32,000 nucleotides of DNA from Acaryochloris marina MBIC11017 (GCF_000018105.1 NC_009928.1:241122-273121), one strand, 5' to 3'. Shown: positions 1,634 through 31,633, counted from the stretch's first letter. Made by a program: numbers and translations. The notes: a model not told the origin generated them from the letters alone.

Positions 1634-2011
1634 ATGCCGAGAAAGAAAAAGCAAGCTAAACCCTTAACAGGAAAAGACTTAGTAGCCAAAGTAAAACAAC
1701 TGAGTGATTACACTCGTGAAGAAAAAGCGAAAGCTTGCGGATACGTTTCTAATGACAAAGGTGGCTCTGAACGAATTAAAACTATCGCATTCCTCAATGC
1801 TCTTTTAGATGCAGAAGGAATTGATTTAGATAGCCAATCTTCCAATGGGAGCGGCGTTGGAGGACGAAGAGCAAGCTATAAAGTTAGTGTGCAGACCAAT
1901 GGCAATATTTTGGTGGGCCGTACTTATACCCAAGCACTAGAACTTGAGCCTGGGGATGAATTTGAAATCTCAGTAGGTCGCAAGCACATTCATTTGACCA
2001 AGGTTGCTTAA
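1634..2011 (+). CDS. Cyanobacterial AbrB-like (cyAbrB) transcriptional regulator
   Basis: The C-terminal segment SYKVSVQTNGNILVGRTYTQALELEPGDEFEISVGRKHIHL matches the swapped-hairpin AbrB/SpoVT fold placed C-terminally, as in cyAbrB proteins. The N-terminus is basic. An AT-rich promoter region lies upstream and a strong terminator downstream. Confidence 0.8.
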   Translation: MPRKKKQAKPLTGKDLVAKVKQLSDYTREEKAKACGYVSNDKGGSERIKTIAFLNALLDAEGIDLDSQSSNGSGVGGRRASYKVSVQTNGNILVGRTYTQALELEPGDEFEISVGRKHIHLTKVA

Positions 2012-2024
2012 GAGTTTATCCAGT

Positions 2025-2074
2025 CAATCAATAAACTCCCCTGTATAGTCTTGTACAGGGGAGTTTATTGATTG
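2025..2074 (+). terminator. Perfect 21-bp stem-loop, likely a bidirectional intrinsic terminator after the abrB-like gene
   Basis: caatcaataaactcccctgta (2025-2045) pairs perfectly with tacaggggagtttattgattg (2054-2074). The loop is 8 nt and the 3' arm is T-rich. Confidence 0.75.
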
Positions 2075-2217
2075 TGTAACCTCACTACATGGCAAACACA
2101 GAGGAGTATCTTTCCAACAATTGATATTCCCAGACCCAGTTATATTGCCCAGGTTCCCAGATACCCCCTATTACAATCCTTGCAGTACAATACTCGCAAT
2201 CCTTTCAAGGTACTGTC

Positions 2218-2493
2218 ATGAATAAAGGCGAACTCGTTGACGCAATTGCTGAAAATACTGGCGTCACTAAGAAGCAAGCTGATACTACCCTTTCGGCTAC
2301 TATTGAGACAATCGTTGATGCTGTTAGCTCTGGTGAAAAAGTTACTCTCGTTGGCTTCGGCAGTTTTGAAGCTAGAGACCGCAAAGCTAGAGAGGGACGT
2401 AATCCTAAGACGGGTGAGAAAATGACTACACCAGCTTCCAAAGCACCTGTTTTCAGCGCTGGCAAGCTTTTCAAGGAAAAAGTAAAACCCTGA
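2218..2493 (+). CDS. hup: HU-family nucleoid-associated DNA-binding protein
   Basis: 91 aa. MNKGELVDAIAENTGVTKKQADTTL...GFGSFEARDRKAREGRNPKTGEKM...P.FSAGK is a textbook HU/IHF signature. Confidence 0.95.
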   Translation: MNKGELVDAIAENTGVTKKQADTTLSATIETIVDAVSSGEKVTLVGFGSFEARDRKAREGRNPKTGEKMTTPASKAPVFSAGKLFKEKVKP

Positions 2494-2532
2494 TAGACTG
2501 AAGCATATCTATCATTCTATTTTCTACAATCT

Positions 2533-2571
2533 AGCTGGCAGATCTTCTTGTGATTCTGCCAGCTCTTTATT
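2533..2571 (+). terminator. Intrinsic terminator after the HU gene
   Basis: agctggcaga (2533-2542) pairs with tctgccagct (2555-2564), followed by ctttatt. Confidence 0.65.
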
Positions 2572-2661
2572 AGGTGCGATTACTTCCTCTGAGTTTCTTA
2601 AGAAATAACACAAGACCATTCCCATCTCTGGCATTTCAGGGTATTCCTCTACCAACGATGT

Positions 2662-3501
2662 TTGCAAGGCATCAAGCGGATGATTCAAACTGACAGCACT
2701 GGCGCTTATCTCAAAGAAATCGGACGCTATCCCCTTCTATCCCACGAAGAAGAAATCCAACTTGCCAGACAAGCTAAAGCTGGAAACCTTCGGGCCAAAC
2801 AACGGATGATCGAGTGCAATCTGCGCCTGGTCGTCTCCATTGCTAAAAAGCATCAGAATCGGGGCTTGCCATTCATGGACTTAATCCAAGAAGGCAGCAT
2901 CGGGCTGAGTCGAGCCGTTGAGAAGTTCGAGCCTGAGCAGGGGTATCGCTTCAGTACCTATGCCTATTGGTGGATTCGACAGGGAATAACCCGCTCGATA
3001 CAGAATAACAGTCGTGTGATTCGCCTCCCTGTGTGGCATTGGCAGACAGGAAACCAAATCAAACAGACTCAACGACAACTCTCCCAAGAATTCGGTCGTG
3101 AGCCTACACTTGCTGAACTTGCTGAGGCAATGGAGATTGACCTCGACAAACTGAAGCAAAACATGCATCATCTTCAAGATGTTCTCTCTCTCGATATGCA
3201 GGTTGGCAAGGAACAAGACACCACACTAGGAGAACTGATCGAAGCAGAACAATCGACACCAACCCATCTTGAACTGCTGAACCAGAGTGAAGAGGTATCG
3301 AGTTATTTATCACTCCTAGATGAACGGCAACGCTATGTGATTGTCCAGCGATATGGATTAGAAGATGGCGAAGCTAAGACCATGCAAGATATTGGTCAGC
3401 AGCTTGGCGTCAGCCGGGAGCGGATTCGACAAATTATCAACAAAGCGATGAAGAAATTACAGAAAAACAGTGACCTAGCTACAGAAATCAAGACGGCCTA
3501 G
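2662..3501 (+). CDS. RNA polymerase sigma70-family factor (short group 2/3-like)
   Basis: Region 1.2/2.1 [20 protein letters not shown]. Region 2.2-2.4 [12 protein letters not shown]...[41 protein letters not shown]. Region 4.2 [27 protein letters not shown]. The start may be TTG 2662 or ATG 2680. Confidence 0.9.
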
Positions 3502-6352: not shown

Positions 6353-6513
6353 ACGGAAATATTACTTTGTTCTTCCTTAAAGGTGTCCTTCCACTGTTTC
6401 CTTGTTATTAGAATCGGGAACTCTGTCTACACAATAACCGTGTGCTGATTGATGAGTCATCTCTACCCTCGCCTCACTCAACCTCAACAAAACTGAACCA
6501 GGAGGTTCAACAT

Positions 6514-6837
6514 ATGAGCTATGAAGTTTTTCAGCCTGCTGACCTGATGGACGGAATCAGTGCCAACCAATTACGCAGTGAGATTAACGATGCCCTAGCT
6601 AATGGTGTGACAACGATTCTGATAGATCTTAGAGATGTCACCTTTATGAATAGTTCCGCCATTGGTTCCTTAGTGGCTACGCTTAAATCAGTGCGAGGAG
6701 AAGATGGCACCCTCTCGTTATGCTCACTGAATGATCAGGTTCGTATTATCTTTGAATTAACCAAAATGGACAATATTTTCGATATTTATGCAGATCGCCA
6801 AGAATTTATGCATAAAAATGGTATTTCCTCCAGCTAA
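6514..6837 (+). CDS. STAS-domain anti-sigma-factor antagonist (SpoIIAA/RsbV-like)
   Basis: ...TILIDLRDVTFMNSSAIGSLVATLKSVRGEDGTLSLCSLNDQVRIIFELTKMDNIFDIY is a typical STAS signature with a conserved Ser in the NSSAIG context. AGGAGG lies 7 nt upstream of ATG 6514; the ORF-track start at 6442 is a GTG. Confidence 0.85.
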   Translation: MSYEVFQPADLMDGISANQLRSEINDALANGVTTILIDLRDVTFMNSSAIGSLVATLKSVRGEDGTLSLCSLNDQVRIIFELTKMDNIFDIYADRQEFMHKNGISSS

Positions 6838-8089: not shown

Positions 8090-9805
8090 ATGTCTGACTG
8101 TCAAACGTTACTTGATTTTGCCGATCAGTTGATTGAATCCAATACAGGCGCAGTGCTGAGTCAGATACAACGTTTAGTGCTGATGGAGGCATTAACCCTC
8201 CGGGCAAAAGCCAAGACCTATGACCAGGTGGCATCTGAGACAGGTTACTCCAGTGGCTACATTAAAGCAATAGCCGCTGAACTGTGGAAATTGCTGTCAA
8301 AAGTCAGTGGCAAAAAGGTCACCAAAGGTAATGTCCAAACGATGTTGCAACAGCAGCTAAAGCATGAGCCATCACTACTGCAGGATGGGCGCTTGGTGGT
8401 TGAGACAGGGATGCTCCCAAACCGACAGCCAATTATCCCTAAAGCAACGGACGTGACGGCGGTGGTGACGGCGGCTAAAGCGACTGAAATTAAGGAGACT
8501 AACGGTAACAAGACTGACGTTAATCAAGCCGAAGTTAAGGAGAAGGCGACGGTTATACCATCCGTTATTCTGGTGGTGGATGACCAGCCTAATATCATGA
8601 ACCTACTCACCAGCATTATGGAACAGGATGAGTATGAGGTCTGGCAGGCCAGCAGTGGGGCGGAGGGGTTGCAAATGGCCGCGAAGGTGCTGCCGGATTT
8701 GATTTTGCTGGATGTCAACATGCCTGATATGGATGGTTATACCGTCTGCCAGCAGCTCAAGGCAGACCCACAGACTACCGCCATTCCCATTATTTTTGTC
8801 AGCGCCCTGGATGAAACCTGGGATAAGGTGAAAGGGTTTTCCGTCGGTGGCAGTGACTACATTACCAAACCCTTTAACACCCTAGAGGTGATTGTTCGCA
8901 TTGAGGATCAACTGAAAATTCGCCAGATCCAAGACCAAATGCTGAAGGCGGATCAAGCGCCAACTGATTCTCCTCAATCGAAGCCATCTTCCGCCAAAGC
9001 CGTCATTCTAATGGCGGATGATGAACCCAAGAACTTAGCCCTGCTGACGGATGTATTAGAGCAGGAAGGGTATGAAATCTGGCAGGCGGATAGTGGTGCG
9101 GAGGCGTTAAGGGTGGCCGGCATGGTGCTACCGGATCTGATTCTGCTGGATATCAATATGCCCGATATGCAAGGCTACGATGTGTGTCAACAACTGAAAG
9201 CAAACGCTAAAACCAAACTAATTCCGGTGATTTTTGTCAGCGCCCTGGATGAAACCTGGGATAAGGTGAAGGCATTTTCTGTGGGAGGCAGTGACTACAT
9301 CACCAAACCCTTTAACACCCTAGAGGTGATTGTTCGCATTGAGAATCAACTGGAAATTCGCCAGATCCAAGACCAAATGCTGAAGGCGGATCAAGCGCCA
9401 ACTGATTCTCCTCAACCGACGCCATCTTCCGCCAAAGCCGTCATTCTGATGGTGGATGATGAACCTAAGAATTTAGCCCTGCTGACGGATGTATTAGAGC
9501 ATGATGGGTATGAAATCTGGCAGGCGGATAGTGGTTCGGAGGCGTTAAGGGTGGCCGGCATGGTGCTACCGGATCTGATTCTGCTGGATATCAATATGCC
9601 CGATATGCAAGGCTACGATGTGTGTCAACAACTGAAAGCAAACGCTAAAACCAAACTAATTCCGGTGATTTTTGTCAGCGCCCTGGATGAAACCTGGGAT
9701 AAGGTGAAGGCATTTTCTGTGGGGGGCAGTGATTACATTAATAAGCCGATTCAGATCGTTGAATTAATGGCTCGGATGAAGCATCAACTGCAAATTTGGC
9801 ACTAA
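8090..9805 (+). CDS. Multi-receiver response regulator: N-terminal HTH-like module plus three CheY-like REC domains
   Basis: The N-terminal 85 aa or so (...IQRLVLMEALTLRAKAKTYDQVASETGYSSGYIKAIAAELWKLLSKVSGKKVTKGN...) resembles the HTH-like module seen at N-termini of many cyanobacterial signalling proteins. Three receivers follow, each with a DD pair, an acceptor Asp in LLD(V/I)NMPDM, and a (T/N)KP lysine. Confidence 0.9.
   Translation: MSDCQTLLDFADQLIESNTGAVLSQIQRLVLMEALTLRAKAKTYDQVASETGYSSGYIKAIAAELWKLLSKVSGKKVTKGNVQTMLQQQLKHEPSLLQDGRLVVETGMLPNRQPIIPKATDVTAVVTAAKATEIKETNGNKTDVNQAEVKEKATVIPSVILVVDDQPNIMNLLTSIMEQDEYEVWQASSGAEGLQMAAKVLPDLILLDVNMPDMDGYTVCQQLKADPQTTAIPIIFVSALDETWDKVKGFSVGGSDYITKPFNTLEVIVRIEDQLKIRQIQDQMLKADQAPTDSPQSKPSSAKAVILMADDEPKNLALLTDVLEQEGYEIWQADSGAEALRVAGMVLPDLILLDINMPDMQGYDVCQQLKANAKTKLIPVIFVSALDETWDKVKAFSVGGSDYITKPFNTLEVIVRIENQLEIRQIQDQMLKADQAPTDSPQPTPSSAKAVILMVDDEPKNLALLTDVLEHDGYEIWQADSGSEALRVAGMVLPDLILLDINMPDMQGYDVCQQLKANAKTKLIPVIFVSALDETWDKVKAFSVGGSDYINKPIQIVELMARMKHQLQIWH
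8793..9740 (+). repeat. 438-bp in-frame tandem duplication (about 2.2 units) inside the response-regulator gene
   Basis: tttttgtcagcgccctggatgaaacctgggataaggtgaa recurs at 8793, 9231 and 9669. By eye, units 2 and 3 are identical for about 185 nt (about 9101-9290 vs 9539-9728), with only scattered differences elsewhere. Confidence 0.9.
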
Positions 9806-17229: not shown

Positions 17230-17267
17230 TGGGGATCCTCGTTATAATTAAATGAAAGGATTTATTT

Positions 17268-17308
17268 ACGACCTCCTGGGCTGGGAAGATCAAGGAGGTC
17301 GTTTTATT
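17268..17308. other. 10-bp stem-loop (terminator- or attenuator-like) between the YlqD-like and 69-aa genes
   Basis: acgacctcct (17268-17277) pairs with aggaggtcgt (17293-17302). tttatt follows on the plus strand and taaataaat follows on the minus strand. Confidence 0.45.
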
Positions 17309-17412
17309 GTGGTTGGGTGGGAAGTCTGGGAGGTGGTATTGGGGTAATTGTCATTGGTATCAGAGTTGCGATCGCGTATCACCCTCAGTTGATGAGTTGG
17401 GAAGGGGCAAAT

Positions 17413-17423
17413 AATATACCCCT
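17413..17423 (-). promoter_or_regulatory. Backbone motif copy (minus strand AGGGGTATATT)
   Basis: aatatacccct lies in the intergenic region just downstream of the YlqD-like stop, 58 nt upstream of a 16-codon mini-ORF. Confidence 0.35.
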
Positions 17424-17446: not shown

Positions 17447-17962
17447 TCACAATTCGCCCCGAAGTTCTTCAATGACCCCATCCCGCAGCACCATCTCGAC
17501 CTGCATCTTGCGAATAAAGTGGTCGCCTTGCTTGACGTAAAAGTAGCTATCTACCTGGCCTTGTTCAACTTCCTCGCCCAGCTCCAATGTTCCGACCTTC
17601 TCCAGTTGCTGCAAGACTTGAGCTTTTTGCTGGAGCAGTTCGTTTTTGCGTTGTTCAGCTTGTACCTGGATGCCTTGGATCTGGTTCTGGGTTTCGCCTA
17701 CAGCACTGCTATCGGCCCCAACAACTTGAATCGTATGCTGGCTTAGCTCCTCAACCATTTGATTGACCTGGATGGCCAGTTGGCCAAGCTGCTCGTCTAA
17801 CTGATCAACTTGGGACTGGAGAAGTTGCTGTGCCTCGTCTTTCCATATAGGAGTGACGATGGCCTTGATGGTGATTGGACGATTGAGTAAGAGCTGATTG
17901 GATGATGGAGACTCAACCCAAAGTTCTGGTTTGGGCTGGGTGGGACGGTTTTGAGTAAGCAT
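17447..17962 (-). CDS. Coiled-coil protein, YlqD-like (tentative)
   Basis: 171 aa. ...ITIKAIVTPIWKDEAQQLLQSQVDQLDEQL...LELGEEVEQGQVDSYFYVKQGDHFIRKMQVEMVLRDGVIEEL resembles cyanobacterial YlqD-family proteins as I remember them. AAGGAG lies upstream of the ATG. Confidence 0.7.
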   Translation of the reverse strand: MLTQNRPTQPKPELWVESPSSNQLLLNRPITIKAIVTPIWKDEAQQLLQSQVDQLDEQLGQLAIQVNQMVEELSQHTIQVVGADSSAVGETQNQIQGIQVQAEQRKNELLQQKAQVLQQLEKVGTLELGEEVEQGQVDSYFYVKQGDHFIRKMQVEMVLRDGVIEELRGEL

Positions 17963-18004
17963 GATTTGCTCTCCTTAATTTGATAGTTTTGAAGGTGACG
18001 AATT

Positions 18005-18180
18005 AATATACCGCCGCTCTGATTTGCTAGTTGGCGATGCTGGGTAATATGTCACCAGCTTTATTGGCTCCTGTTGGAGATGCCAGGTAATGTGCCACCG
18101 CTCTGATTTACTTGGTTGGAAGTGACCGATAATCTGCCACCTTGAGAATTTAGCTGAGTGGTGCCAGTGAATATGCCACT
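18005..18180 (-). repeat. Phased array of five backbone-motif copies (about 42-bp period)
   Basis: aatataccgcc 18005, aatatgtcacc 18046, aatgtgccacc 18089, aatctgccacc 18131, aatatgccact 18170. Copies 1 and 3 share about 30 nt (ccgctctgattt.ct.g.ttgg). The array straddles the stop codon at 18061. Confidence 0.75.
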
Positions 18181-18444
18181 CTTGTCATTTGCCGAAGTTG
18201 GGGCGATGGTCCCCCGCAGCCACCAGCCCCCAAACCCAGCGATGAGGGCGACTAGCACAACTAGCCAACCCCAATAACTGACATCGCCAAGCACAGCCAT
18301 GCGGTACTCATGGTCTCGGCGACGTTGGGCAGACTGCATTAGGAATTGCTGGTTGTCGTTAATTTGCTTGCGCTCTCGCAGGGCCTCAATCCGCTCGTTG
18401 TTCTCAAGAATGCTCATCACCCACGAGAACACCATTTCGCCCAC
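18061..18444 (-). CDS. Small membrane protein (127 aa, one TM helix)
   Basis: GTG start. TM helix YWGWLVVLVALIAGFGGWWL. The C-terminal 40 aa or so are encoded by the motif array, so the tail may be incidental. Confidence 0.6.
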   Translation of the reverse strand: MGEMVFSWVMSILENNERIEALRERKQINDNQQFLMQSAQRRRDHEYRMAVLGDVSYWGWLVVLVALIAGFGGWWLRGTIAPTSANDKSGIFTGTTQLNSQGGRLSVTSNQVNQSGGTLPGISNRSQ

Positions 18445-18455
18445 GAAAGTCCACG

Positions 18456-19097
18456 CTACTCCTCCACCACAGTGGCTTTTAAGAGCGGCTGCTTTCCCGG
18501 CGTCAGTTGATTGGCCGTTAGCTTACTCACTAGCGCAGCCACCTCTGGACGCTGCATAATTTCATCGGCTTTGGCCTGGATTCGGGCGTTGACGTATCGG
18601 TTGGCACTTTCATCCAACTCACCCAAAACTTGTACAACCTGATGGATGGTATTCTCCGTCGCCAAGTCGATAATCGGATCTATCTTCCGCTTCAGAACTT
18701 CCGGTAGTTCAGCTCTGGGGATTGCAGATTCTACCAGTGGTACCTCTTCTACCCCTCGCATCTCTGCTTTGACCGCATCAACAGGGTCAACCCCTTCCTC
18801 AGAGACACGCTCACAGACGAGGATAAACAGTGGGTGATATAGGTCGTCTCCTGTCTCAATCCCTTCAGCAGAAATCGCCTTGTGGATAGGCTTAAGGTCC
18901 ACTTGATACATCTCAGATGTGTAGATGCACCAGCCATGCGTGTAGGTGTCTGCGTTGTTTTCAGCCTTGAGCTGGAGGACACCCTGCAAGGTCTCCAGAT
19001 CATAGCCGTCCTCGCTCATTCCGCAGGCCCGTAGTAGCTTGTCGAGGTCATTTTGCTCAATGCCCAATGTTTGGGTTAGGTCAGTTGCATTCGTCAT
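18456..19097 (-). CDS. Hypothetical protein (213 aa)
   Basis: Clean acidic ORF. ATG 19097 lies 30 nt downstream of the first copy of the three-copy motif array. Confidence 0.75.
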   Translation of the reverse strand: MTNATDLTQTLGIEQNDLDKLLRACGMSEDGYDLETLQGVLQLKAENNADTYTHGWCIYTSEMYQVDLKPIHKAISAEGIETGDDLYHPLFILVCERVSEEGVDPVDAVKAEMRGVEEVPLVESAIPRAELPEVLKRKIDPIIDLATENTIHQVVQVLGELDESANRYVNARIQAKADEIMQRPEVAALVSKLTANQLTPGKQPLLKATVVEE

Positions 19098-19126: not shown

Positions 19127-19228
19127 GAATATGCCACCGTGGATTTTGATGGCAGCAAAGAAGGGACATGTGAATATGCCACCGTGGGTTTTGATATCGG
19201 TAGTGAGAGGACATATGAATATGCCCCC
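19127..19228 (-). repeat. Three backbone-motif copies at an exact 45-bp period (candidate centromere or iterons)
   Basis: gaatatgccaccgtggattttgat begins at 19127, gaatatgccaccgtgggttttgat at 19172, and gaatatgccccc at 19217. The array lies between the stop of the ParR-like gene and the start of the 213-aa gene. Confidence 0.8.
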
Positions 19229-19244
19229 TCACTTTTTTTTGCGG

Positions 19245-19643
19245 TCAGTCGTCCATAACGAACTCTTCAAATTCCGCTTGCGACTCATCCCAAGGGGGTG
19301 TGTCATCAAGGTCATCGGCTTCCGCTGGTAATGTGCCACCAGGGTTACTCAGTGTTGGTGCAACCATGACGGGTAGGGGCACCTCTGCTTCAGCTAGCCC
19401 CAAAGCCATCTGGTAATAGCCTTCAACTTGGACCCTAGAAACTTCAATAGCCCCTTGAATCGCAGCTCGATTACGAGTCTGGATGGCGACAGACAGCACC
19501 TTTAGCACAGAAAACATAATGTCCATGCATAGCCGGGTAAAACTGGGTCCAGGGCCGTAGTGATTGCGAACCGTTTTGACAATTACCCCTCGCTCAGAGG
19601 TGAGTTTCCACTGAGTCTTTACCTTGAAATAGATATCAGACAT
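19245..19643 (-). CDS. Small protein with acidic C-terminal tail; candidate ParR-like adaptor
   Basis: 132 aa. It overlaps the parM-like stop by 8 nt (translational coupling). The tail is AEADDLDDTPPWDESQAEFEEFVMDD. The assignment rests on position only. Confidence 0.7.
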   Translation of the reverse strand: MSDIYFKVKTQWKLTSERGVIVKTVRNHYGPGPSFTRLCMDIMFSVLKVLSVAIQTRNRAAIQGAIEVSRVQVEGYYQMALGLAEAEVPLPVMVAPTLSNPGGTLPAEADDLDDTPPWDESQAEFEEFVMDD

Positions 19644-20754: not shown

Positions 20755-20783
20755 GTTGAAAAACCTATCGGTTTGGTCAAGGT

Positions 20784-20794
20784 AATGTACCCCC
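20784..20794 (-). promoter_or_regulatory. Backbone motif copy upstream of parM (minus strand GGGGGTACATT)
   Basis: aatgtaccccc, with 29 nt between the motif and ATG 20754. Confidence 0.4.
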
Positions 20795-20991
20795 GCCAAA
20801 ATTGCGGTTTTTGGGGGTCGATTGGGGGTCGTTTAGGTACTCGAAAGCCCTATTTGCAAGGATCCTAGAGATGGTGCTACTTTGGGGGCAGATTCAAGAG
20901 GTTCTGGAGGGGTCGCTGAGGCTCCCACACCCATCACCACTCCGAGGCACCGGAACGGAAATTTACCCAATCGGACTGACCCTAAATTTTC

Positions 20992-21086
20992 GTAGTACAT
21001 TCAGAAACATTTTTGTACTATCACGTAGTACTTCCGTAGTTGTTTTGTAGCTTCACTCTGTAGTATTCAGTAGTATCTCTGTAGTT
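20992..21086. repeat. Array of about eight yGTAGTwy iterons at 10-13 bp phasing in the parM/relaxase divergent intergenic region
   Basis: GTAGT(A/T) occurs at 20992, 21025, 21036, 21060, 21070 and 21081, with variants GTACTA at 21015 and GTAGCT at 21047. Confidence 0.7.
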
Positions 21087-21205
21087 TTTATGAGAACGAT
21101 CACGTTTGTGGTCGATGGAATCGCTTTTTAAAAATTTCACTGCAGTTATTCCCATGCTTAAAACTTTCCTGAAGCGTCTGAACCGCTGAATCAAAGGCCG
21201 ATGTC

Positions 21206-24200: not shown

Positions 24201-26815
24201 TTGCAGTTGACGATGAGCGACAAGGTATTGGAGGCCGCAGAGGAAATTATGCAGATCAAGAACAAGCTCCCCCGACACGCCCCACCCAAGACGGTCGCTC
24301 AACAGAATGGGGGTCAACCTCCTCAGACCTAGCAAACTGGGTGATGCAATGGTCTGAGGAGCAAGAGCTTGCAGCAAGTGGGTTAGGTGAACACCTGCTA
24401 GCCCTCTCTCAAAGCATAAACAGACTGAGTGAAAATCTCGATAATGTTTCTTTTAATGGCCTGGGCGAATTGGCTGAAGTCGTAGTAAGGGAGCTAGAAC
24501 AACAAGCCCTCGCCCAGAACCTTACTCATATTGCCCAATCCATTGACCAGATTGACCAGACCATCGAACAGACGGTTAGACAGCAAAGGATCAGGAGCAT
24601 TGCCGATGCTGTCACAGAATGGCGAACGGGCCAGGAGCTGGCAAATGCCGTCACCGAAATGGTGAATGTCCTGACTCAGGGCACTGAAGGGCTAGACCGG
24701 GCAATCATCCGACTCCAAGCCGGGATTGAAGCCACCCAATCTCTGGATGTCCAATTCCCCGCAATGGCTGAATTGGTCGATGCCGTTCATGATTGGCAAA
24801 CTGAGGTGGAAGTCTCTGCGGTCATGGGCGAAGTGCAGGACTTGGTTGCGTCAATCACGGTGCCCCAATTCCTGGGCATGGATGACCTGGCTCAGGATGT
24901 CCATGCCCTCAACGAAGAACAAGCCTTGGCTGAGAGTGGCTTGATTGAGCAGTTAGCTGAGTTGACCACTCAGATTAACGAGTTGGTTGAACCCCAGCAA
25001 GTTCAGTTTGAGGGCATAACTCAGTTGGCCGAAGTGGTGAGCGAACTCCAGCAGGGGCAATCCCTCGCTCAGGTGCAACCTCAGCTCCAGGCCATCACCC
25101 AGCAGATTGAAGCGTTTAACGCCAAGCAACCCACTTTTTCTTTTGCCAGAATCAAGGAGCTGGCCGATACCGTCAGTGAATGGAGGGCACATGAGTCCAT
25201 TGCTCAGCACATTGGCGCACTCAATGATCTAACCGTTCGCGCTCAACGAAGTCTGAGAATCTTCCCAGCTATGCTGCAATTGGCTAAATCCGTGAAGGCG
25301 ATGCGCTCAGTGGATGCACTCATGAATGGGCCAGTCGCAAATCAGCTCAAGGAAGTCGCCCAACAGTTGACAGACAAGGGAATAAGCGTCACTCCTAAGC
25401 CCAAAACCATTGATGATCAGGTGTTCTGGACACCCGACTATGAGGGAGTGGCGCGGCCAGACTACATTGATGAAAAACACTGGAATGAATGGGTGTCTAG
25501 TTGTGCCCATCCTGATGTGATTGCCGCTCGGCTCCAATCCATCGCCGATGATCAGGTGATTGATCGGTTGCTGGGAGCCAAGATTGAAGACATCGCCACT
25601 CGTAGACGGGATGGGTCTTTCAAGACGGTTCGTACTCAATATCCCATTAAAGCGATTCGGTCTTTGATTAATGAGCGGTCTCATCCTGAAGTGTTGAGCT
25701 ATCAAGAGCTAGCTGAAGGTGGGGGCTGGTGGGCTGATGCTGGAGTGGATCCGCTGTCCTTTGAAGAACTTGGCCCCAATGAGGAACCCACACTGAGTCT
25801 ATATGGAACGTTTAAACCTGATACTCCCCGCATTGACGTAGACAAGACCCGCAGAGCTAGGGCTAAAAACCCCAATGCCCCAACCAAATATCGCAAGTAT
25901 GAGAATCCATTGGGAACCAAGCGCGAATTGTTCGAGCGAGACATGGCATTCCAACCCGTCCCAGACCATATCGCTGAGCGGATCTTTGCCAAGTATGGTG
26001 TCACCCAAACCCAGGAGGAGAAAGCCAAGGGATTCTGGTACACGGTCTACAAGCATCCTGAGATTCCCATCTACCGGACTGAAGGCGATAAAAAAGATGC
26101 GGCATTAGTCTCTCAAGGAAGAGTCGTCATTGGTGGTCAGGGGGTCAACATCGGCTATCGGGCCAAGAACCAGCACGATGAAAAGCTCGAAAGAAGAGTA
26201 CTGCACCCTCAGCTAGACGTGTTTGCGGTTCCAGGCAGAGAGTTCAGGTATGCCCATGACTGGGATTCTGAGCAGTCCACGGTCTGGAACGTTCGCCGTG
26301 AAATGGTCAGAGAGGCTGAACTCATTGAAGAAAGAGACTGCAAGACATGGAGAATTCCTTGGGATTCTGAGAAAGGGAAAGGCGTCGATGACCTGATCGC
26401 TAATCATGGCCCCATCGCCTTTGAGCGGGCCGACAAGAATGCCTATCCGATGGAGCGGGAAATCACGATGCACTATCGGGGCCAGTACACCCAGATTAAG
26501 AAGCGATTAAATCGTCACTTTGGATGCGCGGTCCACGATATTCCCATTTACCTAGAAGCGATGAAGGATGGGGACGAGATGGATGGCATTCGGGTCCTAT
26601 GGGAGTCTTCCACTGCCCGGTCCTTCCAGCATTACCATGACAAGCAGCACTATATCGAGGGCATCATCAAACTCTCGGATGCCTATCGTAGACTCGTCAG
26701 AAAAGACGGTGACCCCAAGGCCATGCAAATCCTCGTCAACAGACTAAAAAAGCCCCGACCCATTATCAAGGTCGAGGCCAGAAGTCGGAATATAAAACGA
26801 GGCTATGGACGTTAG
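21206..26815 (+). CDS. MOBF-type (TrwC/TraI-like) relaxase plus RecD-like helicase, ending in a helical-repeat region and a Toprim-like (DUF3854-type) domain, all as one 1869-codon ORF
   Basis: N-terminal ERYYSE...WVGSNAIVQKLG. His triad HHTSRDGDMQLHTHMLIMN. Walker A GFPGVGKSRTLG. Walker B VWLIDEAGMMS. C-terminal IYRTEGDKKDAALVSQGRVVIGGQGV (Toprim Glu) and GKGVDDLIANHG (DxD). The bridge at 23829-24332 is suspect; see findings. Confidence 0.85.
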   Translation: MKTMRTIYGEMIDYYDEDESLVDAPERYYSESEVITDIDRMSTAVWVGSNAIVQKLGTYVKREDFKALSRGFLPESLKSVAGGAVQRIRGKKPNEEDKERLAHDLVLSAPKSVSMALHLEGDNRIFDAHMEAVLETFELLEREYAQTRIQVNGVRSVVDTGNMIAALMPHHTSRDGDMQLHTHMLIMNGTEGPDGRWRSLSHEKLAQAKWIGSFYRQKLAEKVQRLGYRIYQTKDAFELVGYDRSDVEVFSKRHRAIVKAVQKEGLEVTPENKKLKVLPTRKAKRGVGKKLEIIQDHWREEARSQGVGHPVLAEPLAVMPDPDRARYEVESAIRHYAEWSSIFEKDDIYAYVFKTLKRQGMAMEQVDEAIKQSKELIPVDRGFTTVTAVEEEAQIHQRWMEGQGQAQPMVAHPSLLGISVELNEDQAKAILNTLSSSDRYQIWQGFPGVGKSRTLGVLKTLLNGSGLSIRGFSPTIPAAKKLQDELGITTNTVEHLVLHKVEDSPNQVWLIDEAGMMSRRQMKVILEKAEPIGAQVIFVGDAGQNSAIEAGNPFKFMQANGATTHRIEEIVRQKVDVQKQAVELIARGRGIAALELLDANGYVIESGCKAEMAQAAADQFLALPLKEQEETLIIAGTNEERLDTEQAIRWGEKQAGRLGESSKIVQLKSRNLSIEQKRRADWYRKGDYVRLLQTSKTSSIKRGQLYKVEKREGDELVVSSFGGRLYRFKPAKYKLKEVYSAHKFDVAVGDKLRWTTTIKENNWINGQQLTVTALDGLNMKVRDHEGRSHDVPLTQPLALEYDRVWTSYRSQSGTKKRTIVITTNDRTSSREPFLVDISRQEHELTVYTESLNKLRNRVAKSNAQKSALDLIEGTYGNQRTTTTERQQSTADHQQSTADHQRASSPVSPTHGRDHHLDQSSRRGPNSEPTHPRRKQRTQVPGQGADQHHPNGSQSRSQPIYPGVQGGDGIQETLGYEREHQGTRQGNGQLKDENRGYQRVAVDDERQGIGGRRGNYADQEQAPPTRPTQDGRSTEWGSTSSDLANWVMQWSEEQELAASGLGEHLLALSQSINRLSENLDNVSFNGLGELAEVVVRELEQQALAQNLTHIAQSIDQIDQTIEQTVRQQRIRSIADAVTEWRTGQELANAVTEMVNVLTQGTEGLDRAIIRLQAGIEATQSLDVQFPAMAELVDAVHDWQTEVEVSAVMGEVQDLVASITVPQFLGMDDLAQDVHALNEEQALAESGLIEQLAELTTQINELVEPQQVQFEGITQLAEVVSELQQGQSLAQVQPQLQAITQQIEAFNAKQPTFSFARIKELADTVSEWRAHESIAQHIGALNDLTVRAQRSLRIFPAMLQLAKSVKAMRSVDALMNGPVANQLKEVAQQLTDKGISVTPKPKTIDDQVFWTPDYEGVARPDYIDEKHWNEWVSSCAHPDVIAARLQSIADDQVIDRLLGAKIEDIATRRRDGSFKTVRTQYPIKAIRSLINERSHPEVLSYQELAEGGGWWADAGVDPLSFEELGPNEEPTLSLYGTFKPDTPRIDVDKTRRARAKNPNAPTKYRKYENPLGTKRELFERDMAFQPVPDHIAERIFAKYGVTQTQEEKAKGFWYTVYKHPEIPIYRTEGDKKDAALVSQGRVVIGGQGVNIGYRAKNQHDEKLERRVLHPQLDVFAVPGREFRYAHDWDSEQSTVWNVRREMVREAELIEERDCKTWRIPWDSEKGKGVDDLIANHGPIAFERADKNAYPMEREITMHYRGQYTQIKKRLNRHFGCAVHDIPIYLEAMKDGDEMDGIRVLWESSTARSFQHYHDKQHYIEGIIKLSDAYRRLVRKDGDPKAMQILVNRLKKPRPIIKVEARSRNIKRGYGR
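23829..24332 (+). CDS. Embedded +1-frame ORF encoding a 167-aa coiled-coil-like protein (possible separate cistron)
   Basis: GAGG (23819-23822) lies 6 nt upstream of the ATG. An in-frame TAA sits at 23814. Codons are C/G-ending. The product is amphipathic (NELRVQLAPLTDAITILTNQVEEVQTQNQHILDENRELKSQV...). The ORF stops 11 nt before the in-frame ATG 24344 of the long ORF. Confidence 0.5.
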   Translation: METNEQQQQNVNNQQQIINNQQQIINELRVQLAPLTDAITILTNQVEEVQTQNQHILDENRELKSQVRERINTIPMEVKAVLNLFIQEFKEAMASKKPSDMSESIKELAKAMDNLRMKIEDTSVLQLTMSDKVLEAAEEIMQIKNKLPRHAPPKTVAQQNGGQPPQT

Positions 26816-27012
26816 TCTACACGACGGGAGTTAATCACCGTACCACCGTAAGGACTAATCCAATCAGACCCCGGCATGGGAGGTGGGCCTGGAACAATCT
26901 CAGTGCGCCTCCAACCAGATCTATCTTCAATTTCTATGAGGCTCCGTTCTTGAGGTTTGCGGTTTTCTGGAAAGACTCGGCTTTGAATATCGTCTGAATA
27001 AATTTCTGACAT
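26812..27012 (-). CDS. Hypothetical small protein (66 aa)
   Basis: AAGGAG lies 7 nt upstream of the ATG, and a motif copy lies 46 nt upstream. Its stop overlaps the relaxase stop in a convergent arrangement. Confidence 0.5.
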   Translation of the reverse strand: MSEIYSDDIQSRVFPENRKPQERSLIEIEDRSGWRRTEIVPGPPPMPGSDWISPYGGTVINSRRVD

Positions 27013-27058
27013 CGGATTTCTCCTTAATTTGAGTTACAACGTGAAACTGATTCGAGAG

Positions 27059-27069
27059 AATATGCCACC
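27059..27069 (-). promoter_or_regulatory. Backbone motif copy (minus strand GGTGGCATATT)
   Basis: aatatgccacc lies between the 752-aa stop (27073) and the 66-aa start (27012). Confidence 0.4.
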
Positions 27070-29331: not shown

Positions 29332-29374
29332 TGTTCAAGTTCTCCATAGTTAGAGTCCTAAATCGTTGCAAGAG

Positions 29375-29385
29375 AATGTACCGCT
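29375..29385 (-). promoter_or_regulatory. Backbone motif copy (minus strand AGCGGTACATT)
   Basis: aatgtaccgct overlaps the stop of the 118-aa gene and lies 43 nt upstream of GTG 29331. The flank AGAGAAT is shared with the copy at 27059. Confidence 0.4.
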
Positions 29386-29740: not shown

Positions 29741-31464
29741 GCGGCTTGTTCCTCCTGTTGCTTCAATTTGTGGGATTCAACTTCTTGGGTAGAGGGCAGC
29801 AAAGCATCCGCAGACACCATGCGGTCGGACATGATTTGTTCTGGAGAATCTAACACCCGCTCTTGGGCTATCCTCTCCATCTGCCTATGGACATGGCTGT
29901 TGTACATCCGCTCACATTCGGTGAACCGCTGCATGTCCGTGCCATTCCGCTTCTTCAAGTTGAAGCGCATCCGAATGGGCCGATCATCCATGCCGGGGTT
30001 GGTGCAGATAAATTCCCCTTTCTTCAATCGCTTGATATCTGAAGCGGTAATCAACCGCTTCTTCTTCTCCTGTTCATTGCGGGAGCGGCTGTTGCCCATC
30101 TTCCCGTAGCTGCGAGATTTGGAATGGTAGTGCTTGGTGTATTCCCCCAAGTCCGCACTCAGGTCTTCTCGGACTTTGTAGCTCCCACTCTTGAATATGA
30201 ATTGGGTGGAGGTGTTATCAAAGATCGACTCTGAGGTCTCAGACTGATATTTAATCTTGGGTTGGCTATAGCTCTGCATGGACACAAAGGAATAGAACCC
30301 ATAGCTCCGATCCAAGGACACCACTTCTTCAAAGCTCGGCAGCATCAATCGGGCGAATTCATCTAGGAACACACCAAAGGGCCGATCCCGTTCTGTATCC
30401 TCATTCAGGTTGCGCTGAATCAGTAGGTGAATAGCAACTGCGACGAGGGGGGCCGTGGCTTTCTTGGCTTGTCCATCCAACTCAAAGAAGATGATTTGCT
30501 TACCCGGTAGGTCCAAAGGAATGGTGGATTGGGTGGGTTCGCGCCCATCGATGGACAGACAGGGGATGGTCTGCCGATTGACCATTGGTAAGAGATAGTT
30601 GATGCCACTCGCTAATATGCCACCAGCAGTATCTTGGGTGCCCGTCACGCTCATCAGGCCCACGAGCTGTTGCCTCACCCACATGCCCAAATCGCTATCT
30701 ACTTTGAATGCCCCTTCTTGGTCCGCCAACTGAATCCGCTCGGCGATGCCCGGCAGGCCCATCAAGGCCCAGACCATCGGCAAGTCCGCATAGTCTGCCC
30801 GCTTTGCCATCATCAGCAATGCTTGTAGAAGGTACTCGGCGTGATTGTCGAAGAAAGGATGCTTGTTCGACATATTGACAATCACGTTATCGGACAAGGT
30901 TGAGGCGATGGACCGGGCAATCAGGGAGTCATCCGCATCCCGCATAAATCCCAGGTAGTCAAAGCCATGACTATAGGGCTTGCCCGGAGCAAAGCAGTAG
31001 CACTCATAAGGAATTTTTTGCTTGCGGGCATAGGGGATGAATATCTTCTTGAGGGTGCCTTTGACATCAAAGACAATCAGAGTGTGCTCTTGAAGAATGG
31101 CATCTGCTAAAGCTAGCTCAATTAGTTTGGTCTTGCCCTTACCAGAGCCGCCTACGATGGTGACGAGGGGTTGGAGGTCGGGGAGGATCAGGGGGTCATC
31201 GCTACCCAAGCGCAGGGCAATCTCATCCCGTTTTCGGTCTCTGATCTGCTTGAGTCCCAGCATCTTAGCTCGATGCTGTTCCCGTCTCGTGGCCCACCGG
31301 GCATCATCGGGTTCACGTCTCGTCTCATCCTCAAACCACCACAGGGCAATCAGGATGAGAGCCAATAAGCCCGTCAACCAGGGGAGAGGGCCACTGAATA
31401 GGGGAGACAGGTCAACTCCTTCAGATTGGGGCTGGGGAGGCTGTTCGGTTTTGTGCTGCATCAT
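29737..31464 (-). CDS. Type IV secretion coupling protein (VirD4/TraG/TraD family)
   Basis: N-terminal TM helix LPWLTGLLALILIALWWF. Walker A IVGGSGKGKTKL. Walker B-like GVFLDEFARL. 575 aa. Confidence 0.9.
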   Translation of the reverse strand: MMQHKTEQPPQPQSEGVDLSPLFSGPLPWLTGLLALILIALWWFEDETRREPDDARWATRREQHRAKMLGLKQIRDRKRDEIALRLGSDDPLILPDLQPLVTIVGGSGKGKTKLIELALADAILQEHTLIVFDVKGTLKKIFIPYARKQKIPYECYCFAPGKPYSHGFDYLGFMRDADDSLIARSIASTLSDNVIVNMSNKHPFFDNHAEYLLQALLMMAKRADYADLPMVWALMGLPGIAERIQLADQEGAFKVDSDLGMWVRQQLVGLMSVTGTQDTAGGILASGINYLLPMVNRQTIPCLSIDGREPTQSTIPLDLPGKQIIFFELDGQAKKATAPLVAVAIHLLIQRNLNEDTERDRPFGVFLDEFARLMLPSFEEVVSLDRSYGFYSFVSMQSYSQPKIKYQSETSESIFDNTSTQFIFKSGSYKVREDLSADLGEYTKHYHSKSRSYGKMGNSRSRNEQEKKKRLITASDIKRLKKGEFICTNPGMDDRPIRMRFNLKKRNGTDMQRFTECERMYNSHVHRQMERIAQERVLDSPEQIMSDRMVSADALLPSTQEVESHKLKQQEEQAA

Positions 31465-31598: not shown

Positions 31599-31622
31599 GA
31601 CGGTCAGAATTATCTACGCGAT

Positions 31623-31633
31623 AATGTACCGCC
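31623..31633 (-). promoter_or_regulatory. Backbone motif copy upstream of the T4CP operon (minus strand GGCGGTACATT)
   Basis: aatgtaccgcc lies in the intergenic region between the divergent T4CP operon and the Uma2 gene. Confidence 0.4.

Follow-up and report, generated by a model that had tools for sequence, protein, structure and literature searches.

On the minus strand of a 32,000-nt stretch of Acaryochloris marina MBIC11017 DNA (NC_009928.1:241122-273121; hereafter the window, whose numbering is used throughout), a short motif recurs five times between a gene for a 127-aa membrane protein and ylqD, running across the stop codon of the former. This locus, here termed array A, raises the question of what such a series is for: a binding array of the kind used in plasmid replication or partition, as the original prediction preferred, a signal belonging to ylqD, or the repetitive end of a protein. 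The copies were confirmed to be real repeats working at the DNA level. On balance, array A is probably a tandem amplification, in five units of ~42 bp, of a ylqD promoter-plus-leader module that overlaps the tail of the upstream open reading frame (ORF). The genes considered here lie on the minus strand, referred to below as the gene strand.

Repeat units of array A and the overlapping ORF

The five copies lie where they had been predicted, with starts at 18005, 18046, 18089, 18131 and 18170 on the plus strand and spacings of 41, 43, 42 and 39 bp; on the gene strand, the core nearest ylqD begins 53 nt 5' of the ATG at 17962. A repeat search of the window returned four of the array A copies as one family of 25 nt with 64-100% identity (D1) and the unit junctions as another, of 27 nt in 3 copies (D2). 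The two families overlap and D2 spans the junctions, indicating that the whole unit of ~42 bp is repeated and that the repeat extends beyond an 11-mer. Copies 1 and 3, for which similarity over an extended unit had been noted, are 84% identical across 25 nt. Array A was not reported by Tandem Repeats Finder (TRF) at default settings, owing to units that are just ~65-85% alike. A stretch of 1321 bp containing array A and a second array described below (array B) is identical in L018 and L019, which are independent assemblies of this plasmid, ruling out an assembly artefact. The original prediction also placed the copies roughly on one face of the helix; this argument is weak, and a constant face is not maintained, as unit lengths run from 38 to 47 bp (3.6-4.5 turns) across relatives and three arrays.

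The units share a 12-nt core on the gene strand, GGnGGyAyATTm, which is strongly enriched in the window. With up to two mismatches to AATATGCCACC, 23 matches were found against 8.9 +/- 3.0 in shuffled sequence, and with up to one mismatch to GGNGGYAYATTM the count was 19 against an expected 2.9 +/- 1.7; in neither case did any of 100 shuffles reach the observed number. Of these 19 matches, 15 fall on the minus strand in the interval 17.4-31.6 kb; arrays A and B account for eight of the 15, and no functional-looking match was seen in the accessory half of the window. In an alignment of 29 units, information per column is 1.44 bits in the core and 0.66 bits in the remainder of the unit and spacer, and this far better conservation of the core points to selection on it. 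Positions A2 and T6 of the hexamer yAyATT within the core are present in all listed copies, including degenerate ones picked out by eye (GGTGGCATGTTA, GGTGGAAGATTA and GGGGGACATTC), an observation that is partly circular in that the search patterns demanded both bases. A right arm, G(T/G)CA(C/T)C (GTCACC-like), follows 3-4 nt past the core and is partly complementary to GGTGGC, the imperfect inverted repeat of array A being GGTGGC-N9/10-GTCACC. The rest of the unit is a poorly conserved spacer that terminates in CAAATCAGAGC. This spacer end aligns with CAAATTAAGGAGC in the ylqD leader, the segment that holds the ylqD ribosome-binding site, with AAGGAG in the leader corresponding to CAGAGC in the upstream units. 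The alignment of the units over their full length, together with the match between spacer end and leader, argues for an origin by repeated duplication of a ylqD promoter-plus-leader segment.

As had been described, three of the copies fall inside the tail of the 127-aa ORF, which ends in ...SGIFTGTTQLNSQGGRLSVTSNQVNQSGGTLPGISNRSQ, and two lie past its stop codon. The accompanying view that conservation is at the DNA level and not the protein level was upheld. The repeat carries on beyond the stop codon, the next copy being in another reading frame. When the comparison with related plasmids was made, the ORF tail was found not to be kept as protein, differing in length and sequence, and the DNA motif was retained. 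Membrane-protein tails across the relatives are 29-55 residues long and end in different units and frames, and the distal core always stands directly after the conserved ...SAN(N/D)(K/S/R) of the protein. A DNA-level signal is also supported by the presence of the same motif in non-coding DNA 5' of other genes. The contrary explanation, that the units are a 13-14-residue protein repeat in the membrane-protein tail and that the copies past the stop codon are remnants of a recent truncation, draws on a shared reading frame: with spacings of 39 and 42 bp, this frame takes in the first three units of the window, L015 and L016, and the first two of L007 and L014; moreover, frame 0 is invariably that of the first core, which encodes SGI(L/F), TGIL or GGTL. 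This explanation is nevertheless highly implausible: the tails of L001 and L003 end at different units and frames, the core is kept in non-coding units and at the non-coding sites elsewhere, and the position of the proximal unit is fixed with respect to the ylqD start codon and not to the ORF. The tail of the 127-aa ORF is best explained as dispensable, merely following whatever array A encodes. The arrangement is unusual in that a regulatory array would have spread by tandem amplification into the coding end of the gene 5' of it, so that array and ORF share the same DNA.

Distribution of the core in the window and in related plasmids

The minus-strand gene order around array A is a ParM-like actin-family ATPase, a 132-aa ParR-like protein, array B, a 213-aa protein, the 127-aa membrane protein, array A and ylqD (Table 1). 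A MobF relaxase gene is divergent from the ParM-like gene, and a type IV coupling-protein gene lies farther along. Cores precede the ParM-like, 213-aa, ylqD and 752-aa genes, two small ORFs and the coupling-protein region, and, like array A, several of them adjoin or overlap the stop codon of the gene that lies 5' of them (29374 and 27058).

Related loci were gathered from PLSDB, from GTDB genomes and by exact-protein look-ups, the last being the source of most of them; searching GTDB genomes for the 213-aa family added just one locus. The closest plasmids in PLSDB are from Acaryochloris, at ~78% nucleotide identity. The layout described above is common to 10 related Acaryochloris plasmid loci, and array A is present in every relative that keeps the gene order. 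The number of copies at the ylqD site varies, with one in L006 and L011, three in L001, L002 and L007, four in L003, L014 and L015, and five in the window and L016. L006 and L011, the most divergent relatives with this layout, have one copy per site, and in L006 a 22-bp sequence is identical at both sites. Array B has 1-3 copies among the relatives.

The distance from core to gene varies little. The proximal core is located at -51 to -58 from the ylqD ATG in all relatives, at -40 to -42 from the 213-aa ATG and at -38 to -41 from the ParM-like gene. The gene after ylqD has a core at -50 to -51, and in six relatives a third, two-unit array (array C) is found there. Taking the window and the 10 related loci together, all gene-proximal copies are on the gene strand at -35 to -58 from the start codon. 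Over a 50-kb stretch of plasmid S15 'unnamed10', 13 matches read with the genes and 2 against them; the 13 are 37-52 nt 5' of seven annotated genes or in the arrays above them, and three of these genes, with cores at -37, -39 and -52, are transfer genes.

Table 1. Array A, other copies of the core and the associated genes, in window coordinates.
Feature	Position	Strand	Remarks
Core copy AGGGGTATATTA, then TTTGCCCCT	17412..17423	-	Just past the ylqD stop codon; remnant of the two-unit array C of relatives
ylqD (YlqD family, 171 aa)	17447..17962	-	PF11068, E = 1.6e-38; directly 3' of array A
ylqD leader	17963..18003	-	attcGTCACCTTCAAAACTATCAAATTAAGGAGAGCAAATC, then ATG; 3' of the gene-proximal unit; homologous to the unit spacers
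Array A	18004..18180	-	Five tandem units, 39-43 bp each
Array A core GGCGGTATATTA	18004-18015	-	
Array A core GGTGACATATTA	18045-18056	-	
Array A core GGTGGCACATTA	18088-18099	-	
Array A core GGTGGCAGATTA	18130-18141	-	
Array A core AGTGGCATATTC	18169-18180	-	
127-aa membrane-protein ORF	18061..18444	-	Conserved body ends ...WWLRGTIAPTSAN; S/G/T/N/Q-rich tail from units A5-A3
213-aa gene	18456..19097	-	Between arrays A and B; N-terminal ~110 aa highly conserved across plasmids
Array B	19127..19228	-	Three 45-bp units (GGTGGCATATTC, GGTGGCATATTC, GGGGGCATATTC); proximal core starts 41 nt 5' of the 213-aa ATG
ParR-like adaptor candidate, 132 aa	19245..19643	-	First 8 nt shared with the ParM-like gene
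Extra core copy GGTGGCACATTA	19329..19340	-	Within the ParR-like gene, towards its 3' end; the L006 copy there is L006's own motif variant
ParM-like actin-family ATPase, 372 aa	19636..20754	-	Family profile against CorM (PDB 9rmi), E = 8e-5; FcmB, E = 6e-4
Single core copy GGGGGTACATTA	20783..20794	-	Starts 40 nt 5' of the probable ParM-like ATG (20754)
Two 11-bp direct repeats TTGGGGGTCGA (plus-strand sequence)	20811..20832		Just 5' of the putative ParM-like promoter region; parC-like iteron candidate
Core copy GGTGGCATATTC	27058..27069	-	57 nt 5' of the ATG of a 66-aa ORF (26812-27012); just 3' of the 752-aa gene stop codon
Core copy AGCGGTACATTC	29374..29385	-	54 nt 5' of the 752-aa gene, which starts with GTG; overlaps a 118-aa ORF at its stop codon
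Exact core copy GGTGGCATATTA	30613..30624	-	Inside the coupling-protein gene
Core copy GGCGGTACATTA	31622..31633	-	35 nt 5' of a 45-aa ORF overlapping the coupling-protein gene start

A proposed promoter module and its alternatives

The best explanation of these sites, judged from sequence, is that the core would be a common promoter-proximal signal of the plasmid maintenance and transfer backbone. This reading follows from the asymmetry of the core, its strict orientation with transcription, its narrow range of distances to start codons, its presence at the head of an operon, and its near-invariance where ParR-like proteins differ. The copy between the 11-bp iterons and the ParM-like ATG marks the operon head, where a promoter must exist. 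We infer promoter activity at the cores, use of a sigma factor there and possibly a regulator. In the mechanism proposed, yAyATT would serve as a -10 hexamer, whose A2 and T6 are retained even in degenerate copies, and the G-rich bases directly 5' of it may form an extended -10 resembling GGGaAtacT, the 'J-box' of cyanobacterial promoters of SigJ/SigF type. Transcription by RNA polymerase and a host sigma factor would in that case begin ~7 nt farther 3', so that leaders would be ~20-35 nt long and include a ribosome-binding site. The imperfect inverted repeat in which the core lies may double as an operator overlapping the -10 for a plasmid regulator, the sole candidate found being the 213-aa protein. 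With extra units there would be more sites for initiation or binding, which could increase or adjust how strongly ylqD and the 213-aa gene are expressed, independently of the ParM/ParR genes and their autoregulation.

Several observations weigh against a promoter module. At the core sites, a gene-strand scan with the sigma-70 consensus gave no -35/-10 pair, nor was a conserved -35 element apparent. The window has its own sigma-factor gene (2662-3501), whose product is RpoD/group-2-like and not SigF/SigJ-like; a plasmid-encoded sigma factor was considered as the reader of the motif and set aside for want of specific support, being of this RpoD/group-2-like kind. Units ~42 bp apart would overlap inside one RNA polymerase footprint, and simple duplication fails to explain the common ~42-45-bp period of three arrays with different spacers, which recalls the 43-bp units of sopC. 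Two exact copies are also located inside genes (19329 and 30613).

Among the alternatives, the preference of the original prediction for iterons of a Rep or centromere protein over a promoter was for the most part not supported: single copies, always oriented with transcription, are found ~35-57 nt 5' of five or more further genes in the window and of seven genes on the S15 stretch, copy number ranges from 1 to 5, no Rep-family protein was detected among the neighbouring genes, and the ParR-like protein tracks other repeats. That the units are replication iterons for a Rep initiator at the plasmid origin is very improbable. The one point in its favour is the general appearance of a direct-repeat array on a plasmid; set against this, Pfam and NCBIfam scans detected no Rep family in any neighbouring ORF, some relatives have a single copy, the motif is scattered 5' of many genes over 14 kb, and no AT-rich unwinding region is evident (GC is 52% at 18-19 kb). 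On iteron plasmids, iterons are typically repeats of ~17-22 bp set ~22 bp apart; the array period here is 42 bp in the window and 38-47 bp over all arrays. The cumulative GC skew maximum near 17-18 kb was considered as a sign of an origin and discarded, as it coincides with a switch in gene strand. The units could instead act as RNA, forming a hairpin, GGUGGC-loop-GUCACC, ~40-50 nt before start codons on a polycistronic transcript, with a role in processing, stabilisation or protein binding. In keeping with this, 87% of cells pair in the proposed register versus 28-73% in shifted ones, and some variant arms are perfectly matched (e.g., L001 A2, GGAGGTA...TTACCTCC, and L003 A2, GATGGCA...TGCCATT). 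G-U pairs also render the gene-strand fold, at -7.0 kcal/mol, more stable than the antisense at -5.3, and it is likewise more stable than shuffled tails at -5.6, although these sites are non-independent and the p-values inflated. There is, however, no covariation beyond that expected from column composition, since pairing stands at 86.8% in shuffles, of which 222 out of 500 score at least as high for covariation as the real units, and RNAalifold gave no consensus structure. The complementary arm is in another register at array B and the single sites, the copy at the operon head would sit 5' of, or at, the transcript start, and no Rfam match exceeded its threshold, leaving an RNA element quite improbable.

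A further alternative, which we regard as rather unlikely, holds the arrays to be a segregation or positioning site like sopC of F or stbS of R388, with a dimeric plasmid protein such as the 213-aa protein binding the palindrome of each unit, and the single sites serving a global repressor like omega (pSM19035), StbA (R388) or KorB (RK2). The units of 39-47 bp each contain an inverted repeat, as do those of sopC (12 x 43 bp with a 16-bp inverted repeat; PMC3177203), array B is directly 3' of the ParM/ParR-like genes, and the ~42-45-bp period is common to three arrays despite their different spacers. StbA and omega, as dual regulators and centromere-binding proteins, likewise use one repeat at several promoters plus one large cluster. 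The model of the 213-aa protein has a four-helix N-terminal domain of moderate confidence (predicted local distance difference test score, pLDDT, 76-89 over residues 1-60), and the N-terminal 57 aa of the protein weakly resemble a RacA/MerR-type winged helix-turn-helix with probability 0.92 but E = 0.6. Such structure matches are not significant, and the protein has no Pfam or NCBIfam match. Also opposed to a segregation site are the asymmetry of the conserved part of the unit, whose right arm is weakly conserved and differs in position among array A, array B and the single sites, the orientation of the copies with transcription, and the single copy per site in L006 and L011. No ParB/SopB- or ParA-type protein was detected near the arrays in Pfam and NCBIfam scans of neighbouring ORFs, where the nucleoside triphosphatase (NTPase) is actin-like, and the resident partition adaptor tracks other repeats. 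In its most specific form, arrays and single sites would together be bound by an Acaryochloris-specific protein, for which the 213-aa protein is the candidate, that represses the whole backbone and forms a second, NTPase-independent positioning complex beside ParMRC. We consider this form unlikely; if true, it would place a StbA- or sopC-like device beside ParMRC in a cell that keeps many related plasmids apart.

Under the favoured promoter-module reading, the common upstream motif would offer a direct handle on the transcriptional wiring of the many large plasmids of A. marina, whose backbones are closely related. Nothing was found in the searchable literature on how these plasmids are regulated or kept apart. 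The cores may prove useful, too, as promoter parts in the genetics of this chlorophyll-d organism.

Partition genes, neighbouring features and known systems

The assignment of the ParM-like protein to the actin family rests on profile matches, including one to CorM, a cyanobacterial ParM derivative (10.1101/2025.06.27.661541), and a homologue has a weak match to ALP_N. For the 132-aa ParR-like protein, the predicted structure consists of an unstructured N-terminus, three helices and a disordered acidic tail, at low confidence (pLDDT 62); Foldseek gave meaningless helical matches alone, which speak neither for nor against a ribbon-helix-helix fold, and the family profile returned nothing from the PDB. 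This model is compatible with a ParR-type adaptor and does not prove one. Among the repeats 5' of the ParM-like gene, four iteron types match four types of ParR-like N-terminus across 8 loci. The iteron GGGGGTCGATT (2 copies; window, L001 and L014) accompanies DIYFKVKTQWK, GGTGGTAAnC (2-3 copies; L007, L017 and L006) accompanies RV(I/V)FRIDTRW, GGGAACT... (7-8 copies; L003) accompanies HYRFRMDTVWD, and CACCGACAAAG (4 copies; L016) accompanies DIYFKIQTRWK. Between the window and L007, which share the array core, the ParM-like protein is 99% identical, yet iterons and ParR-like N-termini differ; conversely, the window and L001 have a common ParR-like N-terminus and iterons and different core variants. 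Judging from these pairings, the 11-bp repeats are probably a better centromere candidate than the arrays. An identity of the arrays with the ParR/parC site was rejected, as the core does not vary with the ParR-like protein, the arrays are 3' of parMR, and one core copy alone is found 5' of the ParM-like gene. The specificity of parC and ParR looks like it has been swapped modularly among co-resident Acaryochloris plasmids, and the pairing of iteron type with ParR-like N-terminus next to a near-identical ParM suggests how related plasmids may avoid partition incompatibility. In a more distant plasmid (L011, 1122-2055; L012, 113-2197), two ParR-like paralogues follow the ParM-like gene: one of 145 aa and of the L003 type, which abuts it, and one of 135 aa with its own core 40 nt 5' of its ATG.

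Other sequence features were noted around these genes. Just past the ParR-like stop codon, array B has as its distal unit an imperfect palindrome of 14 bp; this palindrome, GTGAGAGGACATAT/ATATGCCCCCTCAC (19203-19245), is followed by T8 on the plus strand and so resembles a terminator hairpin antisense to the genes, with an Rfam P31 match below threshold (27 bits against a gathering score of 40). In the divergent intergenic region, a core-like plus-strand sequence, GGGGGCAGATTC (20884-20895), faces the relaxase side; a similar sequence (GAGGGCAGATTC) is present at the equivalent place in L001 and L003, and these may be the matching signal of the relaxase operon. A cluster of GTAGTA(C/T) repeats (cgtagtacattc..., cacgtagtacttccgtagttg... 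and ctctgtagtattcagtagtatctctgtagtt) occupies 20990-21100, 5' of the MobF relaxase gene, and is kept in L001 and L003; TRF reported 21056-21085 within it, at period 10. This cluster is a likely candidate for oriT or a relaxosome-accessory binding region. Between ylqD and a 69-aa ORF, a G+C-rich hairpin on the minus strand (17255-17300), GACCTCCT...AGGAGGTC followed by an A/T-rich run, is probably a terminator. The genes 3' of ylqD differ from those of the relatives, which have the two-unit array C and other genes there. Genes in the accessory part of the window (1634-3501 and 6442-6837) specify a short sigma factor of 279 aa, which is group-2-like, together with an AbrB-like regulator and an anti-sigma-factor antagonist that has a STAS domain, and related plasmids also have several genes of the sigma-70 family. 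A tandem repeat of 438 bp at 8792-9740 (2.2 copies, 95% identical) is contained within a 571-aa gene (8090-9805) with three response-regulator receiver domains, suggesting a recent internal domain duplication.

Among known systems, the core bears some resemblance to the J-box promoters, in which GGG directly precedes the -10 hexamer nAnnnT and the -35 is weak and AT-rich (PMC6495340). This resemblance is offered as a lead. Adjacent G-rich bases and nAnnnT, the lack of a clear -35, strict orientation and the use of one motif over a regulon appear common to both, whereas here the sequence is GGnGGyAyATT, with two or three G alone next to the hexamer, and the motif is amplified in tandem and, in the plasmids examined, confined to the backbone. 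The arrays are like sopC in having ~43-bp units with an internal inverted repeat 3' of partition genes (PMC3177203); they differ in that no SopB/ParB or ParA homologue was detected and in a motif that is asymmetric, oriented with transcription, single at many genes and single-copy in some relatives. With StbA and the stbDR of R388 (10.1101/2022.04.29.490116), and with omega and its heptads on pSM19035 (PMC9499535), they share one short motif at several backbone promoters, which here are putative, in variable copy number and overlapping those promoters. StbA has 2, 3, 5 or 10 copies per site and omega 7-10 (same sources). The repeats of those systems are contiguous, at 9+2 bp or 7 bp, in contrast to cores ~42 bp apart, and the partition adaptor here tracks other repeats. 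R1-type parC, with 11-bp iterons at the parM promoter, fits the repeats at 20811-20832, unlike arrays A and B, which sit 3' of the ParM/ParR genes, repeat every 42-45 bp and show no covariation with the ParR-like protein. The pairing of iteron type with ParR-like N-terminus in turn matches the ParR-specificity families of Clostridium perfringens plasmids (PMC9426499). Set beside these systems, array A involves no new principle.

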